DNA from: a virus
Direction: 5' to 3' (one strand)
Virus genome (UHGV): UHGV-0119412
DNA length: 30,381 nt
The notes under the pieces were generated by a model. It was not told the origin of the DNA. It saw only the letters and a list, made by a program, of their open reading frames with translations, and searched no databases. Made by a program: the position numbers and the translations under genes. Shown one piece after another: positions 20,332 to 29,259 of the stretch (position 1 is the stretch's first letter; each line of letters opens with the position of its first letter).

Positions 20332-21336
20332 ATGGGCGCGGAGATTAATATTTTGGAAACTGATTTTAAAATAACCCTCGAAGGTTTCGCTACTGAGCAA
20401 GAAGCAAATAATATCGGTAATTTCACACTAGAAGCTATCCGAGCTTTAACAAAAAATCTCAATCTTGATATCTCCAAATTAAAATGCGTGATTGTTTCCT
20501 ATAACTTCAGTGAAGCTCTTCAAAAGGTAACATCCTCTTACCAACACAAATCCCCTAGTTCGTTTACCAATAGCAAACAGGGCGCAGCCGTCGGGCAGTT
20601 AGTAACAAAAATTGGCAATGATGGGCTATGTGAAGAATATACCCTTGTGCTATCGATTGATTTTTTTGTTGAGCTTTTCAATGATGGTAGCTTCTTAAAA
20701 CTGAAAGAAGAAGGATACCTCGCAGTCATCCATCGCATTCACCATGAATTAGTGCACGTACATGAAAAAAACTTACTAACATGCTTAGCCCAAAACTTTA
20801 CAGTCAACGAGTATGGTAGCGCGCTTCTTATCTCAGCCACGCGTGCATGGTCTGAATATCTCGCTAATTACATGTCTTCGGGGTCTGCCCCTCAAGAAAC
20901 TATCGATTTATTTTTAGAGAATCTTGACACTGTTGTAAATGAAGTATCTGACGAGATTGAAAAACTCATCTGGGGTTATAAGTACGGTAATATTTCTCTG
21001 AATGACATGTATCTCGAAGTAAAAAAACGTATCAGGCTAATCATCAACTCTTATGCTTATGCGATGGGTTATGTCCATTCTCTAAACATCAATATTAAAG
21101 AATACGATCCAAAGCTATCCCTTACACTATCCAACTCAAAGATAAGATATCAATTATCAGAATTAGGCATTGCTTTTCAGAATCTTTATGGGAAGTTTAA
21201 TGACCAGCACATTACAGGTTTTGGTGATTTTCGGGAGATAACAATAATCATTGATGAAATATTCAAGCAGTTTGGGCTTGTTTTAGAGTGTCCCGATTGG
21301 TCTGGCGACGGTGAACTCTACATACATGTAAATTAG
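20332..21336 (+). CDS. Hypothetical cargo protein with HExxH...NE motif (putative zinc-metallopeptidase-like), between portal and cos
   Basis: 334-aa AT-rich ORF. HHELVH at about nt 20740-20757, with NEYGS about 17 residues later, resembles the gluzincin HExxH-x(n)-E pattern. No obvious Shine-Dalgarno before the first ATG. Confidence 0.6.
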   Translation: MGAEINILETDFKITLEGFATEQEANNIGNFTLEAIRALTKNLNLDISKLKCVIVSYNFSEALQKVTSSYQHKSPSSFTNSKQGAAVGQLVTKIGNDGLCEEYTLVLSIDFFVELFNDGSFLKLKEEGYLAVIHRIHHELVHVHEKNLLTCLAQNFTVNEYGSALLISATRAWSEYLANYMSSGSAPQETIDLFLENLDTVVNEVSDEIEKLIWGYKYGNISLNDMYLEVKKRIRLIINSYAYAMGYVHSLNINIKEYDPKLSLTLSNSKIRYQLSELGIAFQNLYGKFNDQHITGFGDFREITIIIDEIFKQFGLVLECPDWSGDGELYIHVN

Positions 21337-21811: not shown

Positions 21812-22753
21812 ATGCAAGGTGAAGTTGACGAACAGCAACCCAATGAGATTATGTCGGAGTTTGGATACTATCCAGTAGAAGTTAACATTGAGACTGAACA
21901 ATTTTCTTTGCTTACTTTACCTGGTCTCAATGAGAAAGTGGAGCGTGTTAACAATGATAAAAACGTTGTGAAAGGTTGGATATACCCTGGAAACCAAGAT
22001 GTATATAACCTTAATGGTGGCATATCCACAATGCCTTATAGTCACCGTGTATTCAGTATGCCCAAAACGCACACACTAAAATTAAAAAATACATCCTCGT
22101 TAGAAACTCTCAACTTTATTGTGTGGTGCCTTTCTTTTTTCAAGGGAATAAGATTGACAACCACTGACGCTGGTTTTTTAGATGCAACCACTATCAAGCC
22201 CACTAAGTTAACCGACTTTATTCTCGTTGGATGCTCTGAAAAAGAAATCATAGAACTGGCTCTTAATTATATAAATGGCAAACATAAGGATGCGCACTCC
22301 CCCAAAAGAATTGCGGCAGTGGTGCATGCACTATTCTTATCTCAAAACCCACAATACCTTTCTTTTGAAAAATTCCAGTACCTTTACATGGCACTTGATG
22401 GGTGCTTTGCTTTGTCGTGGGCTGAGCATGACAAGGCTCCTGATAAAAAACCGCCAAATCATTACAAGCGATTAAAGTGGATGTGCAAAATTTATGGGTT
22501 ATCAATTCCCACATGGGTGTCAGGTAAAAAAAACATTTCTGGCATCCGCAATGATAATTTTCATGAGGCTATTTTTTTTGGTCAACCGCTTGGTTTCTCA
22601 AGTATTAACAACAGTCAATATGGTAACGATATATTGCTGCAAATGCAGGCACTGGTATGTCGCCTATTAGCGGCAATACTGTCGGTTAATGATTGCAGTT
22701 ATCTCAAATCTTCGGTCAACTCACGAGATTACCATTCATTAAAAATAAATTAA
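21812..22753 (+). CDS. Hypothetical cargo protein with HEPN-like RNxxxH motif (candidate abortive-infection/defence RNase)
   Basis: 313-aa AT-rich ORF with a good Shine-Dalgarno (GGAGAAAGA) and the motif GIRNDNFHEAIFFG (about nt 22546-22563); it sits where P2 carries old/tin, between cos and the replication module. Confidence 0.65.
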   Translation: MQGEVDEQQPNEIMSEFGYYPVEVNIETEQFSLLTLPGLNEKVERVNNDKNVVKGWIYPGNQDVYNLNGGISTMPYSHRVFSMPKTHTLKLKNTSSLETLNFIVWCLSFFKGIRLTTTDAGFLDATTIKPTKLTDFILVGCSEKEIIELALNYINGKHKDAHSPKRIAAVVHALFLSQNPQYLSFEKFQYLYMALDGCFALSWAEHDKAPDKKPPNHYKRLKWMCKIYGLSIPTWVSGKKNISGIRNDNFHEAIFFGQPLGFSSINNSQYGNDILLQMQALVCRLLAAILSVNDCSYLKSSVNSRDYHSLKIN

Positions 22754-22827: not shown

Positions 22828-23037
22828 CTATCGTCGACGTGGTGGTGGTGCGTATTGTTTCGACCTGCTGATGCTATCCAGCTTGCCGTAATTATCCCTG
22901 ACTATTTCGGCACACCCGACCAGCTCTGCGGGTGTCAAATTCTCATTGACCATTATCTGCTGCAAACGATGAACGATGGCCATCAGTTTGATGCTTTTAG
23001 TTTTGTGCTGCGGTATTTCACCTGGTAGTCGATGCAT
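22828..23037 (-). CDS. Small hypothetical protein (69 aa)
   Basis: ATG preceded by GAGGGTG at appropriate spacing; lies between the two direct-repeat copies; no recognisable motif. Confidence 0.4.
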   Translation of the reverse strand: MHRLPGEIPQHKTKSIKLMAIVHRLQQIMVNENLTPAELVGCAEIVRDNYGKLDSISRSKQYAPPPRRR

Positions 23038-23166: not shown

Positions 23167-23227
23167 GCCTCGTGGGCTCGTTACTCAACCCCGCCGACGC
23201 AAAAAGCTAGTTTTTGCGCCAGCACGG
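23167..23227. repeat. Copy 2 of the ~63-nt imperfect direct repeat
   Basis: GCCTCGTGGGCTCGTTACTCAACCCCGCCGACGCAAAAAGCTAGTTTTTGCG...; the internal palindrome GCAAAAAGCT/AGTTTTTGC has a different stem sequence from copy 1 at the equivalent place. Confidence 0.4.
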
Positions 23228-23236
23228 TTATTATGT

Positions 23237-23467
23237 TTAACGCCAGCTATCGTCTTCCCAAATCTCTTGTAATATGCTGCCTAATGTTTCTCTGTCCGCC
23301 TCTTTATCGAATCCGATAGCCTCTACACCAGTCATTGACCCTTTCTTAACGTTAACTTTTGTTGCAGGAAAAACGCATTGTACTCGATGTGTTATTTCAT
23401 TCTGAAAAGCATCAATGATCTGTTGCCCTAATTTTTGCTCTTTATCCAACGTGATATTGATTCTCAT
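23237..23467 (-). CDS. DinI-family protein (equivalent to the Tum C-terminal/DinI-like domain)
   Basis: 76-aa ORF MRINITLDKEQ...GSILQEIWEDDSWR closely resembles E. coli DinI as recalled (MRIEVTI...ISEILQETWES...); it lies downstream of a LexA box. Confidence 0.75.
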   Translation of the reverse strand: MRINITLDKEQKLGQQIIDAFQNEITHRVQCVFPATKVNVKKGSMTGVEAIGFDKEADRETLGSILQEIWEDDSWR

Positions 23468-23470
23468 AAT

Positions 23471-23653
23471 CTAATCAGCCTTATAAAAATTATCATCTTC
23501 GGTTTCGTTATTTTCGCTGTTTGCTAGGTCTGCAATGAGAGTGAGCGCGAGCTTTAAGTCTGATGGCTTGCAGTTTGCAATCAGAGATACCTCGGCAATA
23601 AATTGCACACAAGCCCACTTTTGCTGCGTTCGGCTGAAATGTTCGCCAACCAT
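23471..23653 (-). CDS. Small protein, in-frame upstream partner of the DinI-like ORF (possible Tum N-terminal domain)
   Basis: 60-aa ORF with a GGAGG Shine-Dalgarno; separated from the DinI-like ORF by a single in-frame TAG plus one codon; acidic C-terminus. Confidence 0.5.
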   Translation of the reverse strand: MVGEHFSRTQQKWACVQFIAEVSLIANCKPSDLKLALTLIADLANSENNETEDDNFYKAD

Positions 23654-23674
23654 GAAATCCCTCCCATAGGGTTA

Positions 23675-23690
23675 CTGTATATTTATACAG
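23675..23690. promoter_or_regulatory. LexA box (SOS operator) CTGTATATTTATACAG overlapping the promoter of the Tum/DinI-like operon
   Basis: Matches the CTGT-N8-ACAG consensus; lies 22-37 nt upstream of the 60-aa ORF start in the gap after gene A; TTGCCA and TATAAA-like hexamers are present on the minus strand. Confidence 0.7.
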
Positions 23691-23766
23691 TAGCACGTAT
23701 TGGCAAAAGATGGGAAGAAAAAAAACGAATAGAGCGATTGCTGTATGTGCATGATATGGATATGAA

Positions 23767-25989
23767 TTACTCATGTATTGGTTTTGATGCTTCAGCCATC
23801 GCCGCAACACGATTAAGGATTTTCCGAGCTTTAGCCTCATGCGATGGTGCTGCGGAAAATATTTCTCCTTTGGCCGTTCCGCGTAGCCATTTACCATCAA
23901 AACAACTTTTACCACCGGCCATCAGGTGCAGGGCTTCGCCCCGGCTGATATTAATGCCGGTTGTCAGATGTATTTCGTCGATAGTTTTAGCTATAGCTGC
24001 GTTTTGCTCATCCGTTCCGTGGATGAATTTTCGCCGTGCTGCTGGCTTTTGCTTCCTGAGTCGGTTGGTCAATTCTCGTCTTTCATGCCGACTCAGTGGT
24101 TTTGTTAAATCCAGTATCGGTGGATCGCTTTCGCTTCCCGTACAGTTATTGACAGAACTCCGAGGGACGGCTTTGCCGTCCTGAAGGTCAACGGCCAAAT
24201 CAACAGCACGCTTCGGAACAATCTTCCACTGAGTGAGCCGGGTTAAAATCGGGCTTCCTGCACCTATGGAGGAATCGTAGACCCCCTTAATACATACCGT
24301 TTCCTCACCGTACTGATTAAGCTCGGTACGCGGTTCATACAGTGTGCGCACCTGTAAATCATCGCGACGGACAAACGGCCCACCCTGAGCATTAACATAA
24401 CCAGCCCAGTCACCAGCGTCGGCGGCATCATGGACGGCGGCAAACTCAACGCTCAGACCGTGCGCGGTTTCGGTATCAGCGAGGCGACGCAACTCACGGT
24501 AAACCGTCACCGGCGCACCACCAATAAACTGAAACTGACGGATGTGCCAGCGCGCAGCCCATGCTGAAACGGCGGGGGCTGTCTCTTTCAGCAGCTCACC
24601 GCTTTCATCATCGGTTTCACCATCGAGAGCATAACCGTCGATATTTTTTGAAATGTATTTAGCAACATAGCCGGTTGCGCTGCCTTTCTCCGGGTTAATG
24701 GACTCGGCGTGGAAACGTGCTTTTTTGGATTTATCGCTTTTCAGTTCGTGGCGGTCTTCTTTCCATGCGTATTTACGGACGATGGAGCGAACATATTCAA
24801 CATCTTCCGGCAGCATGAACATCAGCATGTGCCAGTGTGGAGTGCCGTCGTGATGGGGCTCGGCGACACGAATACCGAAAATACGGACATCTTCCCGATG
24901 TAGTTTGGCACGGATACGCGCCCAGATACCGGTTAGATAGTTTTGCGTGTCAGCCGGGCTGGCACCGCTCCATTTGCTGTTACGGTAACCGGCTTTAGTC
25001 GTGGCGTGATATTTTGACGGCGCGGTTAGAGTGTAAAACTCACCGACATAACCGAGCTCATTACAGATGTTTTCAAACCCACGAATGCGGGTCATGAGCT
25101 CACAGCGGCGAATCGCAGGGTTAGCAACTGAGCCATCATATTTTTCAATCAGGCTGATACGGTTGCCGTCTTCGTCTTCGAGATCCAGACCTTTGAGAAA
25201 TTCACGAGTGCGGCGCTTTTGTTCACGCCAGTCAGTCACGCAGTTTTTACTCGCGTAAGTGTTTTTTTTCTTACTGACGTTGCCGACTGCAATTTGCAGG
25301 TGTTCGCGCCACGTAGCTGCAACACGGCGCAAACGACCGCGCCACCACCCATCGTTAAACATTTTGGCGATAGCCGGTGCGATTTCATCCGCACCGACAT
25401 ATTTTTTTTCAACCCGCTCCCAATGTGGTGGGATAACGTTGAATTGGAGGGAAATAAAGCCAGCACGAATATACCAGGTGTACAGCGTTTTAAGCTCGCC
25501 GAATCCGTGGTCATTAATGTTGGCAAGTTCACCACGAATGAAATTAGCAATATCAGCGGCCAACAGGTCAACATCAGCGCGCGACATGTCCGGGAGACGG
25601 TTATATCGGGCGACCATATTAACCATGCGTGACGACAGATATTGCATTTGCTGAGTATCAAAATGACTTCCAAAAACAGCGGTTGATACCTTGCTGTTGA
25701 TACCAGCGCATTCGTATTTTTTTGCGACCAGTTCAAGACGCGGCAATGCCTTTTTGCAGAAGCTGATTAAAAATGCATTGGCTCGTTGACTACCCTGATT
25801 TTGCTCCAGCACCGCAGCAGTGCGATAAACATCTAACCGCACGCAGTCGGGCTGGAGAGAAAGCACCTTTTTTGCATGCAGCAAAGCCGCGAACATACGG
25901 TCGCGGCGATGCTGTTGCTCATAAGTAAGGTATGGGCTGGAGATTGCCGACCGTGGGACGTTCCACGGATAAGCGAATTGAACAGCCAA
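23767..25989 (-). CDS. A: Replication initiation protein A (rolling-circle nickase, gpA-type)
   Basis: 740-aa ORF with an HUH-type motif (TPHWHMLMF); it follows the small early genes as in P2/186. Confidence 0.9.
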   Translation of the reverse strand: MAVQFAYPWNVPRSAISSPYLTYEQQHRRDRMFAALLHAKKVLSLQPDCVRLDVYRTAAVLEQNQGSQRANAFLISFCKKALPRLELVAKKYECAGINSKVSTAVFGSHFDTQQMQYLSSRMVNMVARYNRLPDMSRADVDLLAADIANFIRGELANINDHGFGELKTLYTWYIRAGFISLQFNVIPPHWERVEKKYVGADEIAPAIAKMFNDGWWRGRLRRVAATWREHLQIAVGNVSKKKNTYASKNCVTDWREQKRRTREFLKGLDLEDEDGNRISLIEKYDGSVANPAIRRCELMTRIRGFENICNELGYVGEFYTLTAPSKYHATTKAGYRNSKWSGASPADTQNYLTGIWARIRAKLHREDVRIFGIRVAEPHHDGTPHWHMLMFMLPEDVEYVRSIVRKYAWKEDRHELKSDKSKKARFHAESINPEKGSATGYVAKYISKNIDGYALDGETDDESGELLKETAPAVSAWAARWHIRQFQFIGGAPVTVYRELRRLADTETAHGLSVEFAAVHDAADAGDWAGYVNAQGGPFVRRDDLQVRTLYEPRTELNQYGEETVCIKGVYDSSIGAGSPILTRLTQWKIVPKRAVDLAVDLQDGKAVPRSSVNNCTGSESDPPILDLTKPLSRHERRELTNRLRKQKPAARRKFIHGTDEQNAAIAKTIDEIHLTTGINISRGEALHLMAGGKSCFDGKWLRGTAKGEIFSAAPSHEAKARKILNRVAAMAEASKPIHE

Positions 25990-27558: not shown

Positions 27559-27930
27559 TCAGTTAAGAGCGGTGCGCTGGTCGATGTAGCGACAATCAAT
27601 CGCTTGTTGAGTCAGCTTATCGCGCCATGCTTTTACGTTTACGAGGGTTCGGCTTCGTTTAGCAGCTTCCTCTTTGTTGGAAAAGTCTTTGGTCGGAGCT
27701 TTGAGAAGGACTCCCTCATCGAGCCATTGCCAGACCAGACGCTCGCTAACACCGCGAGTAGCGGCGAAGTCTTTCACAGTCATCGTGTCTGACATAGCGG
27801 AGCGAATCATTGTCTGTAGAGCTGGCAGCATGGCGGTAACGATGGCATCAAACTGTGTTGGATCTAGCAGCACAGTTTGATTTTGTGAGTTTTGCGAGTC
27901 GTGCGTCGAGATTGATTTTGCATCTGACAT
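27559..27930 (-). CDS. Apl/Cox-like HTH protein, first gene of the early lytic operon
   Basis: 123-aa ORF with an AGGAGA Shine-Dalgarno; HTH-like MTVKDFAATRGVSERLVWQWLDEG; divergent from the repressor gene. Longer than 186 Apl (87 aa) or P2 Cox (91 aa). Confidence 0.55.
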   Translation of the reverse strand: MSDAKSISTHDSQNSQNQTVLLDPTQFDAIVTAMLPALQTMIRSAMSDTMTVKDFAATRGVSERLVWQWLDEGVLLKAPTKDFSNKEEAAKRSRTLVNVKAWRDKLTQQAIDCRYIDQRTALN

Positions 27931-28051: not shown

Positions 28052-28912
28052 ATGAGTTCTGAGCTTGATGTTCAGTGGCGTGTTAGTGCAACGAACGGCG
28101 TATTGGAACGCTTAATGTCAGCCTATGGGGTCAAGATGCAAAAGGATTTGGCTGACCTGCTAGGTATCGCTAAACACAGCGTTAGCGGCTGGGTTCAGCG
28201 TGATGCAATACCTGGCAATGTCATAGTTAGGTGTTGTCTTGACACGGGAGCTGATATCAATTGGCTTGTAAATGGAGAGCTTGCAAATGCAAATCACGAG
28301 CGAGCCAGTTGCAAGTTAAAAGGCAAAGAGCTTTATGACGAGATTATGACGAATGGTGGTAAAACCGTTTTGCGTAGGATTCTTGATGCGTATGGCTTTA
28401 CCATGCAAAAGGAGCTCGGTGATTTGCTCGGCATTTCCTCTGGCACAATTAGCACATGGGTAAGGCGAGATTTTTTCCCTGGTGATGTTGTTGTTACATG
28501 CGCTCTTGATACCGATACGTCACTGGAATGGTTAGCAACAGGCAAGGGGCAAATGCGAGCTAACAGGGAAGATGTCACATCTGGTTTTTCAATTAAAAAA
28601 TCTCGTCTTGAATCTGGTGAGCTTAAGGATGCAGGAACGTGGCATCCTGACCCCTCAATGATTCCTTCTAACTCAGGGGAATTGATTTTTGTTGACGGTG
28701 TAGCTGCCTCTTGGCTTGTCGACTGTTCTGCTTCGAATATAAGTAATGGTCGCTGGTTAATTGATATCGACGGCGCTCTTGATGTTTTTGATGTAATTCG
28801 TTTACCTGGTGGAAAAGTCAGGTTGTCAAATAAGTCTGCTGAGTTTGAATGCAACATTACCGACATTACGCCTGCCGGGGTTGTAGTTTTCACATTGGAA
28901 AAACACGTATAA
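28052..28912 (+). CDS. cI: CI-type immunity repressor with a tandemly duplicated N-terminal HTH domain
   Basis: 286-aa ORF. Two homologous segments (...LERLMSAYGVKMQKDLADLLGIAKHSVSGWVQRDAIPGNVIVRCCLDTGADINWLVNGE and ...LRRILDAYGFTMQKELGDLLGISSGTISTWVRRDFFPGDVVVTCALDTDTSLEWLATGK) are followed by a C-terminal domain; upstream of int and divergent from the lytic operon. Confidence 0.75.
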   Translation: MSSELDVQWRVSATNGVLERLMSAYGVKMQKDLADLLGIAKHSVSGWVQRDAIPGNVIVRCCLDTGADINWLVNGELANANHERASCKLKGKELYDEIMTNGGKTVLRRILDAYGFTMQKELGDLLGISSGTISTWVRRDFFPGDVVVTCALDTDTSLEWLATGKGQMRANREDVTSGFSIKKSRLESGELKDAGTWHPDPSMIPSNSGELIFVDGVAASWLVDCSASNISNGRWLIDIDGALDVFDVIRLPGGKVRLSNKSAEFECNITDITPAGVVVFTLEKHV

Positions 28913-28920
28913 GGGAAATT

Positions 28921-29259
28921 ATGAAACGTAAACTCTTTTTAGCTATGCTTCTTACCTTTTCTTTTGGCTCCTTAGCCGCTGAAAAAACACAGGATTTAGA
29001 TGGCGCTAAGTTTGGTGAGGATTGGCCGTTAACTTTTGAAAAAGCTACGGTGTCTTGCGTTAACGGTAAGTATGCCTTTGTATACGACAAAGCAACTGAT
29101 GACCGATACCCATTAAATGGTTTTGCTATTGATGGAGTAAAGTCTGGAAAGCTTGAGGGGAGCAATATTGATGCTGTTTGGAAAGACAGTCCAGAGTATG
29201 CAGGTGTAAAAATTCCTTTGGATCCTGTAATGGATGCCGCAACAGCACTTTGCGAATAA
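28921..29259 (+). CDS. Secreted small protein, YebY/DUF2511-like (moron between cI and int)
   Basis: Start at the internal Met gives 112 aa with a signal peptide (MKRKLFLAMLLTFSFGSLAA), a YPLNG motif and a C-terminal Cys, resembling E. coli YebY as recalled. Confidence 0.5.
   Translation: MKRKLFLAMLLTFSFGSLAAEKTQDLDGAKFGEDWPLTFEKATVSCVNGKYAFVYDKATDDRYPLNGFAIDGVKSGKLEGSNIDAVWKDSPEYAGVKIPLDPVMDAATALCE

Follow-up and report, generated by a model that had tools for sequence, protein, structure and literature searches.

The closest described relatives of the locus analyzed here are the SOS-induction genes of P2- and 186-like phages. In phage 186 (U32222), the p95 promoter, a LexA site and tum (orf95) are all annotated, and the 146-aa product of tum is a LexA-repressed antirepressor of the CI repressor. 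According to a passage in Lemire et al. 2011 (PMC3121763) that refers back to Shearwin et al. 1998, 186 Tum binds CI and blocks its binding to DNA, and the same paper remarks that 186 Tum looks like a fusion between an antirepressor and DinI. The 186 record additionally contains Tum95.5, the 76-aa DinI-like part of Tum, which is started at an internal GTG preceded by AAGGAGG and carries the remark that it "modulates SOS induction."

Salmonella phage PSP3 (AY135486) instead has two genes annotated after its homolog of replication gene A, TumA and TumB. The first is described in the record as "similar to 5' end 186 tum; UV induction of prophage" and the second as "similar to dinI and 3' end of 186 tum." In the relevant passage of Lemire et al. 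2011 (PMC3121763), which cites Bunny et al. 2002, the tum of Fels-2 and PSP3 is said to be split by a stop codon, and a personal communication relayed in that passage names the upstream gene of PSP3 as the one that acts as antirepressor. Lavigne et al. 2009 (PMC2771037) report that 186, PSP3, Fels-2, and SopEphi are UV inducible owing to tum. We rely on these papers for the statements that the upstream PSP3 gene has antirepressor activity and that PSP3 and Fels-2 can be induced by UV; a literature search on the names "tumA/tumB" found nothing relevant. A further point of reference is DuoHS, the P2-like prophage of E. coli HS used in the Phollow study, in which an in-frame deletion of tum abolishes induction by mitomycin C, as does a lexA(Ind-) allele (PMC12055606, PMC11195241).

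The window, by which we mean the whole 30,381-nt stretch of viral DNA that was analyzed (UHGV virus genome UHGV-0119412), is a complete-looking P2/186-like prophage of the PSP3 type (Peduoviridae, Eganvirus-type), and its long ORFs look intact. Escherichia phage vB_EcoM-613R3 covers 97% of its last 25 kb (5400-30381) at 99.4% identity, and the same segment matches Salmonella phage PSP3 over ~77% of its length at ~88% identity. We considered vB_EcoM-613R3 as possible evidence of an inducible phage and dropped it; the one relevant paper that names it surveys phages located in E. coli from clinical sources and gives no evidence here on inducibility. Downstream of gene A lies a pair of short genes resembling the PSP3 pair, and the locus is very probably the two-gene tumA/tumB version of the operon by which a PSP3-type prophage (genus Eganvirus, 186-like) undergoes SOS induction (Table 1). 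Because this module is annotated in PSP3 and discussed in the literature, it is already described; it is neither new nor broken.

Table 1. Features of the tumA/tumB locus, its upstream neighbor and its presumed target in the 30,381-nt window.
Feature	Coordinates	Strand	Basis
Weak terminator-like hairpin, just after tumB	23206..23223	minus	Terminator scan
tumB, 76-aa DinI-like protein (ATG at 23467, in the tumA frame)	23237..23467, including TAA 23239-23237	minus	Pfam DinI
Junction TAG-ATT-ATG (tumA stop, one-codon spacer, tumB start, in frame)	23465..23473	minus	Sequence
tumA, predicted 60-aa antirepressor gene	23471..23653, including TAG stop 23471-23473; codons 23653-23474	minus	Match to PSP3 TumA
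Shine-Dalgarno GGGAGGG of tumA	23659..23665	minus	Read off the sequence, 5 nt before ATG 23653
LexA (SOS) box TACTGTATAAATATACAGTA	23673-23692	minus	Pattern search and alignment to annotated 186 LexA site
Putative -10 hexamer TACTGT	23687..23692	minus	Overlaps LexA box; identical to annotated 186 p95 -10
Putative -35 hexamer TTCCCA of p95-like SOS promoter	23711..23716	minus	Homology to 186 p95 -35 (TTCACA), U32222
Replication gene A (P2/186 A-type rolling-circle replicase), upstream neighbor	23767..25989	minus	ORF list
cI immunity repressor, 286 aa, PSP3 type; presumed TumA target	28052..28912	plus	Pfam: two Phage_CI_repr (HTH) and Phage_CI_C

The initial annotation had described a near-consensus LexA box overlapping a promoter, and this description holds. 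Read on the plus strand the box is CTGTATATTTATACAG (23675-23690), with a CTGT-N8-ACAG core, and on the coding strand (23692-23673) the 20-mer TACTGTATAAATATACAGTA agrees at 19 of 20 positions with the textbook LexA-box consensus, TACTGTATATATATACAGTA. CTGT-N8-ACAG occurs twice in the window where 0.36 occurrences would be expected, an excess which, taken alone, is weak evidence for a real box. The box is more than a chance match because it is kept in related phages and because it aligns with p95. Across 80 IMG/VR viral loci that encode TumA relatives (78-100% identical), a CTGT-N8-ACAG box is found 37-40 nt before the tumA start codon in 78. Comparison with 186 Tum and the p95 region, as the initial annotation had proposed, gave a near base-for-base alignment of the -35, -10, and LexA stretch with the annotated 186 promoter and LexA site, and within the box the differences from 186 are confined to three central bases. 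A generic sigma-70 promoter scan of the window made no call for the p95-like promoter, which was placed through the alignment to the annotated 186 promoter. LexA would be expected to bind this box, and tumA appears to be expressed from a LexA-box promoter immediately downstream of gene A. The coordinates of gene A are those of its longest ORF, and the annotated start in relatives lies further inside. Its homolog is labeled "replication endonuclease" or gp36 in E. coli D3, PSP3, and vB_EcoM-613R3.

The first gene of the operon has a strong Shine-Dalgarno sequence and encodes a protein identical to PSP3 TumA at 59 of 60 residues. The window TumA matches phrog_1993 with an E value of 1.1e-31, and residues 1-61 of 186 Tum match the same family at 1.5e-23, which places the 60-aa ORF in one family with PSP3 TumA and the N-terminus of 186 Tum. 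This homology is visible at the profile level only, as BLASTP of TumA against 186 Tum returned no alignment. An hhalign comparison of the TumA family with the 186 Tum N-terminal family gave a probability of 78% (P 1.8e-5), and the shared core spans 31 residues at ~35% identity (V..IA......C...D...AL.LIA..A). In the initial annotation, two findings were to count against a split Tum, a two-gene arrangement conserved in related phages and a 60-aa ORF dissimilar to the Tum N-terminus. The first proved to be the case, but the second did not, given the profile-level similarity.

Pairwise comparison of the tumA genes gave a pN/pS of 0.15 overall, with 0.09 for codons 1-45 and 0.27 for a variable acidic tail, and the gene is under purifying selection. 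A single-sequence AlphaFold model of TumA, of moderate confidence (pLDDT 69.6), predicts a two-helix hairpin (residues 8-25 and 30-49) followed by a disordered acidic tail, a shape that would be compatible with a small protein-binding module. RefSeq labels the 60-aa gene "hypothetical protein" in those E. coli chromosomes that we examined.

Could the 60-aa ORF be something other than the antirepressor, a leader or an unrelated small protein, with TumB or another factor mediating induction? The sequence databases leave room for this idea: TumA had no match in Pfam, NCBIfam, PADLOC, or PDB sequence searches, phrog_1993 is labeled "unknown function" in PHROGs, and the BLASTP comparison with 186 Tum was negative. 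We nevertheless regard it as very improbable. The strong purifying selection on the TumA core, the presence of the 186 Tum N-terminus in the same PHROG family, and the persistence of tumA and its LexA box in many loci where tumB is absent all argue against it. So do the loss of induction upon deletion of the short DuoHS tum alone (PMC12055606, PMC11195241) and, as relayed in the passage of Lemire et al. cited above (PMC3121763), the antirepressor role of the upstream PSP3 gene.

The presumed partner of TumA is found in the same phage. An immunity region of the 186/PSP3 kind contains a CII of the CP76 family and a CI that shares 98% identity with the CI of PSP3 and 32% with that of 186, so that TumA occurs together with a cognate 186/PSP3-type repressor. 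Whereas 186 Tum is paired with a 192-aa CI, the window TumA is paired with the 286-aa PSP3-type protein. The same association is seen when 7.5-kb flanks are searched in related loci: a CI could be detected in 71 TumA loci and is of the PSP3 type in 70 of them, and 68 of 69 loci with a 186-type Tum and a CI carry the 186 type. Tum type therefore tracks CI type. This pattern fits a specific pairing of antirepressor and repressor, with shared descent as an alternative account. By analogy with 186 and PSP3, TumA of the window phage would be expected to bind CI and act as its antirepressor.

We next consider the boundary between the two genes. As the initial annotation had noted, the 60-aa and 76-aa ORFs stand in one frame with only a TAG and one codon between them, the spacer ATT at 23470-23468, and the second ORF is DinI-like. 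PSP3 has a LexA box and an identical TAG-ATT-ATG junction. Since 186 carries both modules as one 146-aa protein at the same genomic position, the arrangement could be read as a 186-type fused gene that has acquired an amber mutation, with SOS inducibility lost and the two ORFs left as remnants. A few tumA-bearing relatives are in fact decaying prophages with gene A pseudogenes. In the window, however, the long ORFs of the prophage look intact, and tumB has its own ATG. Between its two modules, 186 tum contains an extra 36-nt linker, with the AAGGAGG and the GTG start, and this linker is absent from the window, where the TAG ends the first ORF. Because the linker is missing, a single substitution would not turn 186 tum into the split form, which is not a point-mutated version of that gene.

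Related loci point in the same direction. The TumA ORF is always closed by a stop codon, after 60-61 codons in 79 of the 80 loci and after 66 in the remaining one, and the stop is TAG in 66 loci, TAA in 13, and TGA in 1. A DinI-like gene follows tumA in 50 of the 80, and in 47 of these the junction consists of a stop, 3 nt, and an ATG. All 47 such junctions use TAG, while the spacer codon varies (ATT, TTT, GTT, or ATC), as does the last codon of tumA. The same stop amid varied flanking codons in 47 independent loci, the near-constant length of TumA, the pN/pS of 0.15, and the reported UV inducibility of PSP3 and Fels-2 with the same arrangement (PMC3121763, PMC2771037) all speak against an inactivating mutation, and we consider that reading extremely improbable. 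This TAG is where tumA normally ends. A sequencing error as its source is ruled out by its presence in 47 independent viral contigs and in E. coli chromosomes; in E. coli D3, the chromosome matches the window at 100% of the 651 bases compared.

A search with this 651-nt tum region found matches in 81 of 5426 complete E. coli genomes, of which 27 carry the module of the window over at least 80% of the query. Among the matches listed, 38 chromosomes cover the junction, and all are annotated there as two genes. The first of the three alternatives in the initial annotation, two separate proteins, is thus the correct one, in agreement with the conserved two-gene arrangement and with the PSP3 record. 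On the other side of the comparison, a search with the 186 N-terminal module gave 80 loci, and in 77 of them tum is a fused 146-aa gene that has the GTG start. The forms seen are fused (186-type), split in frame (PSP3-type), split out of frame (DuoHS-type), and tumA only. Fused and split architectures are stable and widespread alternatives, in which tumA is constant and tumB is dispensable.

The tumA-only form is represented among the 30 of 80 TumA loci in which no DinI-like gene comes directly after tumA. Here the tumA stop is TAG in 16 and TAA or TGA in 14. A remnant of the junction is left in some of these loci, for example TAGGTTATGATAATATAA in L046 and L047 and TAGGTTATGTAA in L052. In two E. 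coli prophages that we inspected (strains 1190 and ETEC1716), the 60-aa gene is present and no DinI-like gene is annotated after it. The DinI-like partner seems to be optional, and lineages appear to exchange it.

DuoHS resembles the window in that its tum lies downstream of gene A, is short and LexA controlled, and has a separate DinI-like gene behind it. It differs in having two LexA-like boxes upstream and in ending tum with TGA and a 10-nt spacer. In the published deletion primers, the TGA that closes tum precedes GGTGACTTTT and then ATGCGCATTG, which puts the stop 10 nt before the ATG of a protein starting MRI. A near-identical viral contig has the same layout, with LexA-like boxes before a 62-aa tum and then a 77-aa DinI-like gene 10 nt past the TGA and out of frame. 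The short Tum of this type belongs to another family, phrog_698, and matches phrog_1993 weakly (2.2e-3). DuoHS shows that SOS induction requires, and can be achieved by, a short stand-alone Tum beside a separate DinI-like gene. Because its DinI-like gene is out of frame, it likewise shows that such a module does not depend on the in-frame geometry of the window.

These comparisons also bear on whether the two ORFs might be joined by readthrough. Low-level suppression at the UAG would produce a 138-aa TumA-X-I-TumB fusion mimicking full-length 186 Tum, and this fusion could be the real antirepressor or an additional one. The in-frame arrangement would permit it, UAG can be decoded in amber-suppressor hosts, and TAG is found at 47 of 47 junctions although the spacer and the last tumA codon vary, whereas TAA or TGA is used in 14 of the 30 loci where tumA is not directly followed by a DinI-like gene. 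The invariant TAG, the one piece of positive support for readthrough, is accounted for equally well by common descent of the junction, however, and most of those 30 loci (16) likewise end tumA with TAG. TumA and its LexA box are kept in these 30, and in the DuoHS type tum is still required for induction with the DinI-like gene out of frame after a TGA. Both the tumA-only loci and the DuoHS module, with its genes out of frame, argue against any need for a fusion protein. The literature, as relayed in the passage on PSP3 (PMC3121763), credits the upstream gene alone with antirepressor activity.

We therefore judge readthrough very improbable, with a small chance of being correct. A more specific version, in which the invariant UAG is kept because a few ribosomes read through it, more of them in amber-suppressor hosts, and in which the 138-aa fusion is the equivalent of full-length 186 Tum, has a slimmer chance still. 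Were readthrough to occur, three products (TumA, TumB, and the fusion) would arise from two genes and the fusion would tune the induction threshold, which would parallel the several products of the single 186 gene. Of the initial annotation's remaining alternatives, neither a tum inactivated by the in-frame TAG nor a readthrough product is borne out, since the 36-nt linker is absent, TumA is conserved in length and under purifying selection, and the two-gene form is widespread and already known.

The second gene of the two-gene operon has clearer relatives than the first. Its product matches Pfam DinI (PF06183) over profile positions 2-62 of 63 with an E value of 1.7e-17 (63.9 bits against a cut-off of 24.2), and in PHROGs it matches phrog_189, "RecA filament binding protein DinI." Residues 71-146 of 186 Tum, which correspond to Tum95.5, share 70% identity with TumB, and the ATG of TumB occupies the codon equivalent to the internal GTG start of Tum95.5. 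The initial annotation was right to see in this locus a LexA-controlled Tum/DinI-like SOS module with a relationship to 186 tum. TumB also aligns with the full length of E. coli DinI (PDB 1GHH; E 4.5e-8), C-terminal acidic WE(D/E) motif included. Its score against the host DinI equivalog (NCBIfam NF007893) is 51.4 bits, below the cut-off of 111 bits, and because of this TumB is best classed as a phage DinI-like paralog and not as the ortholog of host DinI. From the homology to 1GHH and the GenBank note on Tum95.5, we infer that TumB may bind RecA filaments and modulate the SOS response. The role of TumB is poorly defined in any phage.

The identity of TumB to PSP3 TumB is 47%. Because TumB is thus closer to 186 (70%) than to PSP3, while TumA is PSP3-like at 59 of 60 residues, the module is, judging by these comparisons, a mosaic that combines PSP3-type tumA and CI with a 186-like dinI-type tumB. 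This mosaicism is the sole local peculiarity of the locus. The hosts also differ, E. coli for the window and Salmonella for PSP3.

We propose that the operon works as follows. In the lysogen, host LexA bound to the box that overlaps the -10 hexamer would keep the operon off. Upon DNA damage, activated RecA would promote the self-cleavage of LexA and the operon would be transcribed. TumA, with its predicted helical hairpin and acidic tail, would then sequester the PSP3-type CI, which would derepress the lytic promoter and lead to prophage induction. The steps up to this point have the backing of homology, conservation, and published work. Synthesis of TumB would begin at the ATG 3 nt past the end of tumA, with reinitiation or coupling to tumA translation as the probable route; the TAG-ATT-ATG geometry suits termination-reinitiation coupling, and the weak AAGG found 11 nt before the tumB ATG could help. 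TumB most likely acts on RecA filaments and tunes the SOS signal, as is annotated for Tum95.5 of 186. On this proposal, the 60-aa gene can be named as a TumA antirepressor and the prophage is predicted to be SOS inducible, not crippled. The value of the result is mainly one of correct annotation.

Just after tumB, the hairpin listed in Table 1 may act as a terminator of the operon. In 186, the partial terminator t95a is found at the equivalent place.

Across loci L289-L447, the related Tum-encoding loci compared with the window, the type of CI repressor and the type of Tum module go together almost perfectly. PSP3-type CI is found in 70 of the 71 loci encoding the 60-aa TumA, the predicted antirepressor, and 186-type CI in 68 of the 69 with a 186-type fused Tum. 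The TumA core is near-invariant across loci, yet the accompanying CI spans ~44 to 98% identity. The window CI, 98% identical to PSP3 CI, combines two Phage_CI_repr HTH domains in tandem (at approximately residues 17-76 and 106-169) with the CI C-terminal domain, in contrast to 186 CI, which has a single HTH domain. PSP3 CI was described by Nilsson et al. 2011 as having "a longer C-terminal domain"; contrary to this, the extra length looks like a duplication of the N-terminal domain. The early lytic operon opens with a gene at the Apl/Cox position whose protein had no match in a Pfam search. This agrees with a published description of the PSP3 counterpart as a singleton, related to neither Apl nor Cox (PMC3448106).

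The start codon is GTG in all 186-type fused tum genes sampled (80/80, L087-L166), and most of these genes also carry a GTG at the exact equivalent of the start codon of tumB, the separate DinI-like gene of the window. An internal Shine-Dalgarno-like AAGGAGG or AGGGAGG is usually retained. A two-gene origin of the fused tum would be consistent with these sequence features, as would selection for the DinI-like part being made as a product of its own.

Several relatives (L046, L047, and L052, as well as L004 and L005 from E. coli strains 1190 and ETEC1716) retain tumA and its LexA box while tumB is gone. Remnants of the junction persist in these tumB-less relatives, for example TAG-GTT-ATG-ATA-ATA-TAA, a pattern suggesting that the DinI-like gene has been lost repeatedly. 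Gene A is also pseudogenised in L004 and L005.

Upstream of the tum gene of the DuoHS type, named for the P2-like prophage of E. coli HS, there are two adjacent LexA-like boxes rather than one (L167 7585-7630), TACTGTAAATATAAACAGTG and a second, ...TATATTTACAGTA. A second CTGT-N8-ACAG match in the window, CTGTTTGGAAAGACAG, has a spacer that is not AT-rich and is probably a chance occurrence.

Features of the window outside tumAB
Feature	Position	Strand	Remarks
334-aa ORF	20332-21336	+	between portal gene and tum operon
313-aa ORF	21812-22753	+	between portal gene and tum operon; phrog_5937 (function label "unknown")
69-aa ORF	22828-23037	-	200 nt downstream of tumB; PSP3 gp37 homologue, phrog_11386 (function label "unknown")
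Apl/Cox-position gene	27559-27930	-	123-aa protein
cI repressor	28052-28912	+	286 aa
CTGTTTGGAAAGACAG	29174-29189	+	within DUF2511 ORF 28849-29259

P2-like phages have variable cargo in the interval from the portal gene to the tum operon. The 334-aa and 313-aa ORFs in this interval are oriented opposite to tumAB, and neither had a match in Pfam or PADLOC searches. Different genes occupy their position in the relative from E. coli D3. The 69-aa ORF may share an SOS transcript with tumAB, like orf97 in 186.
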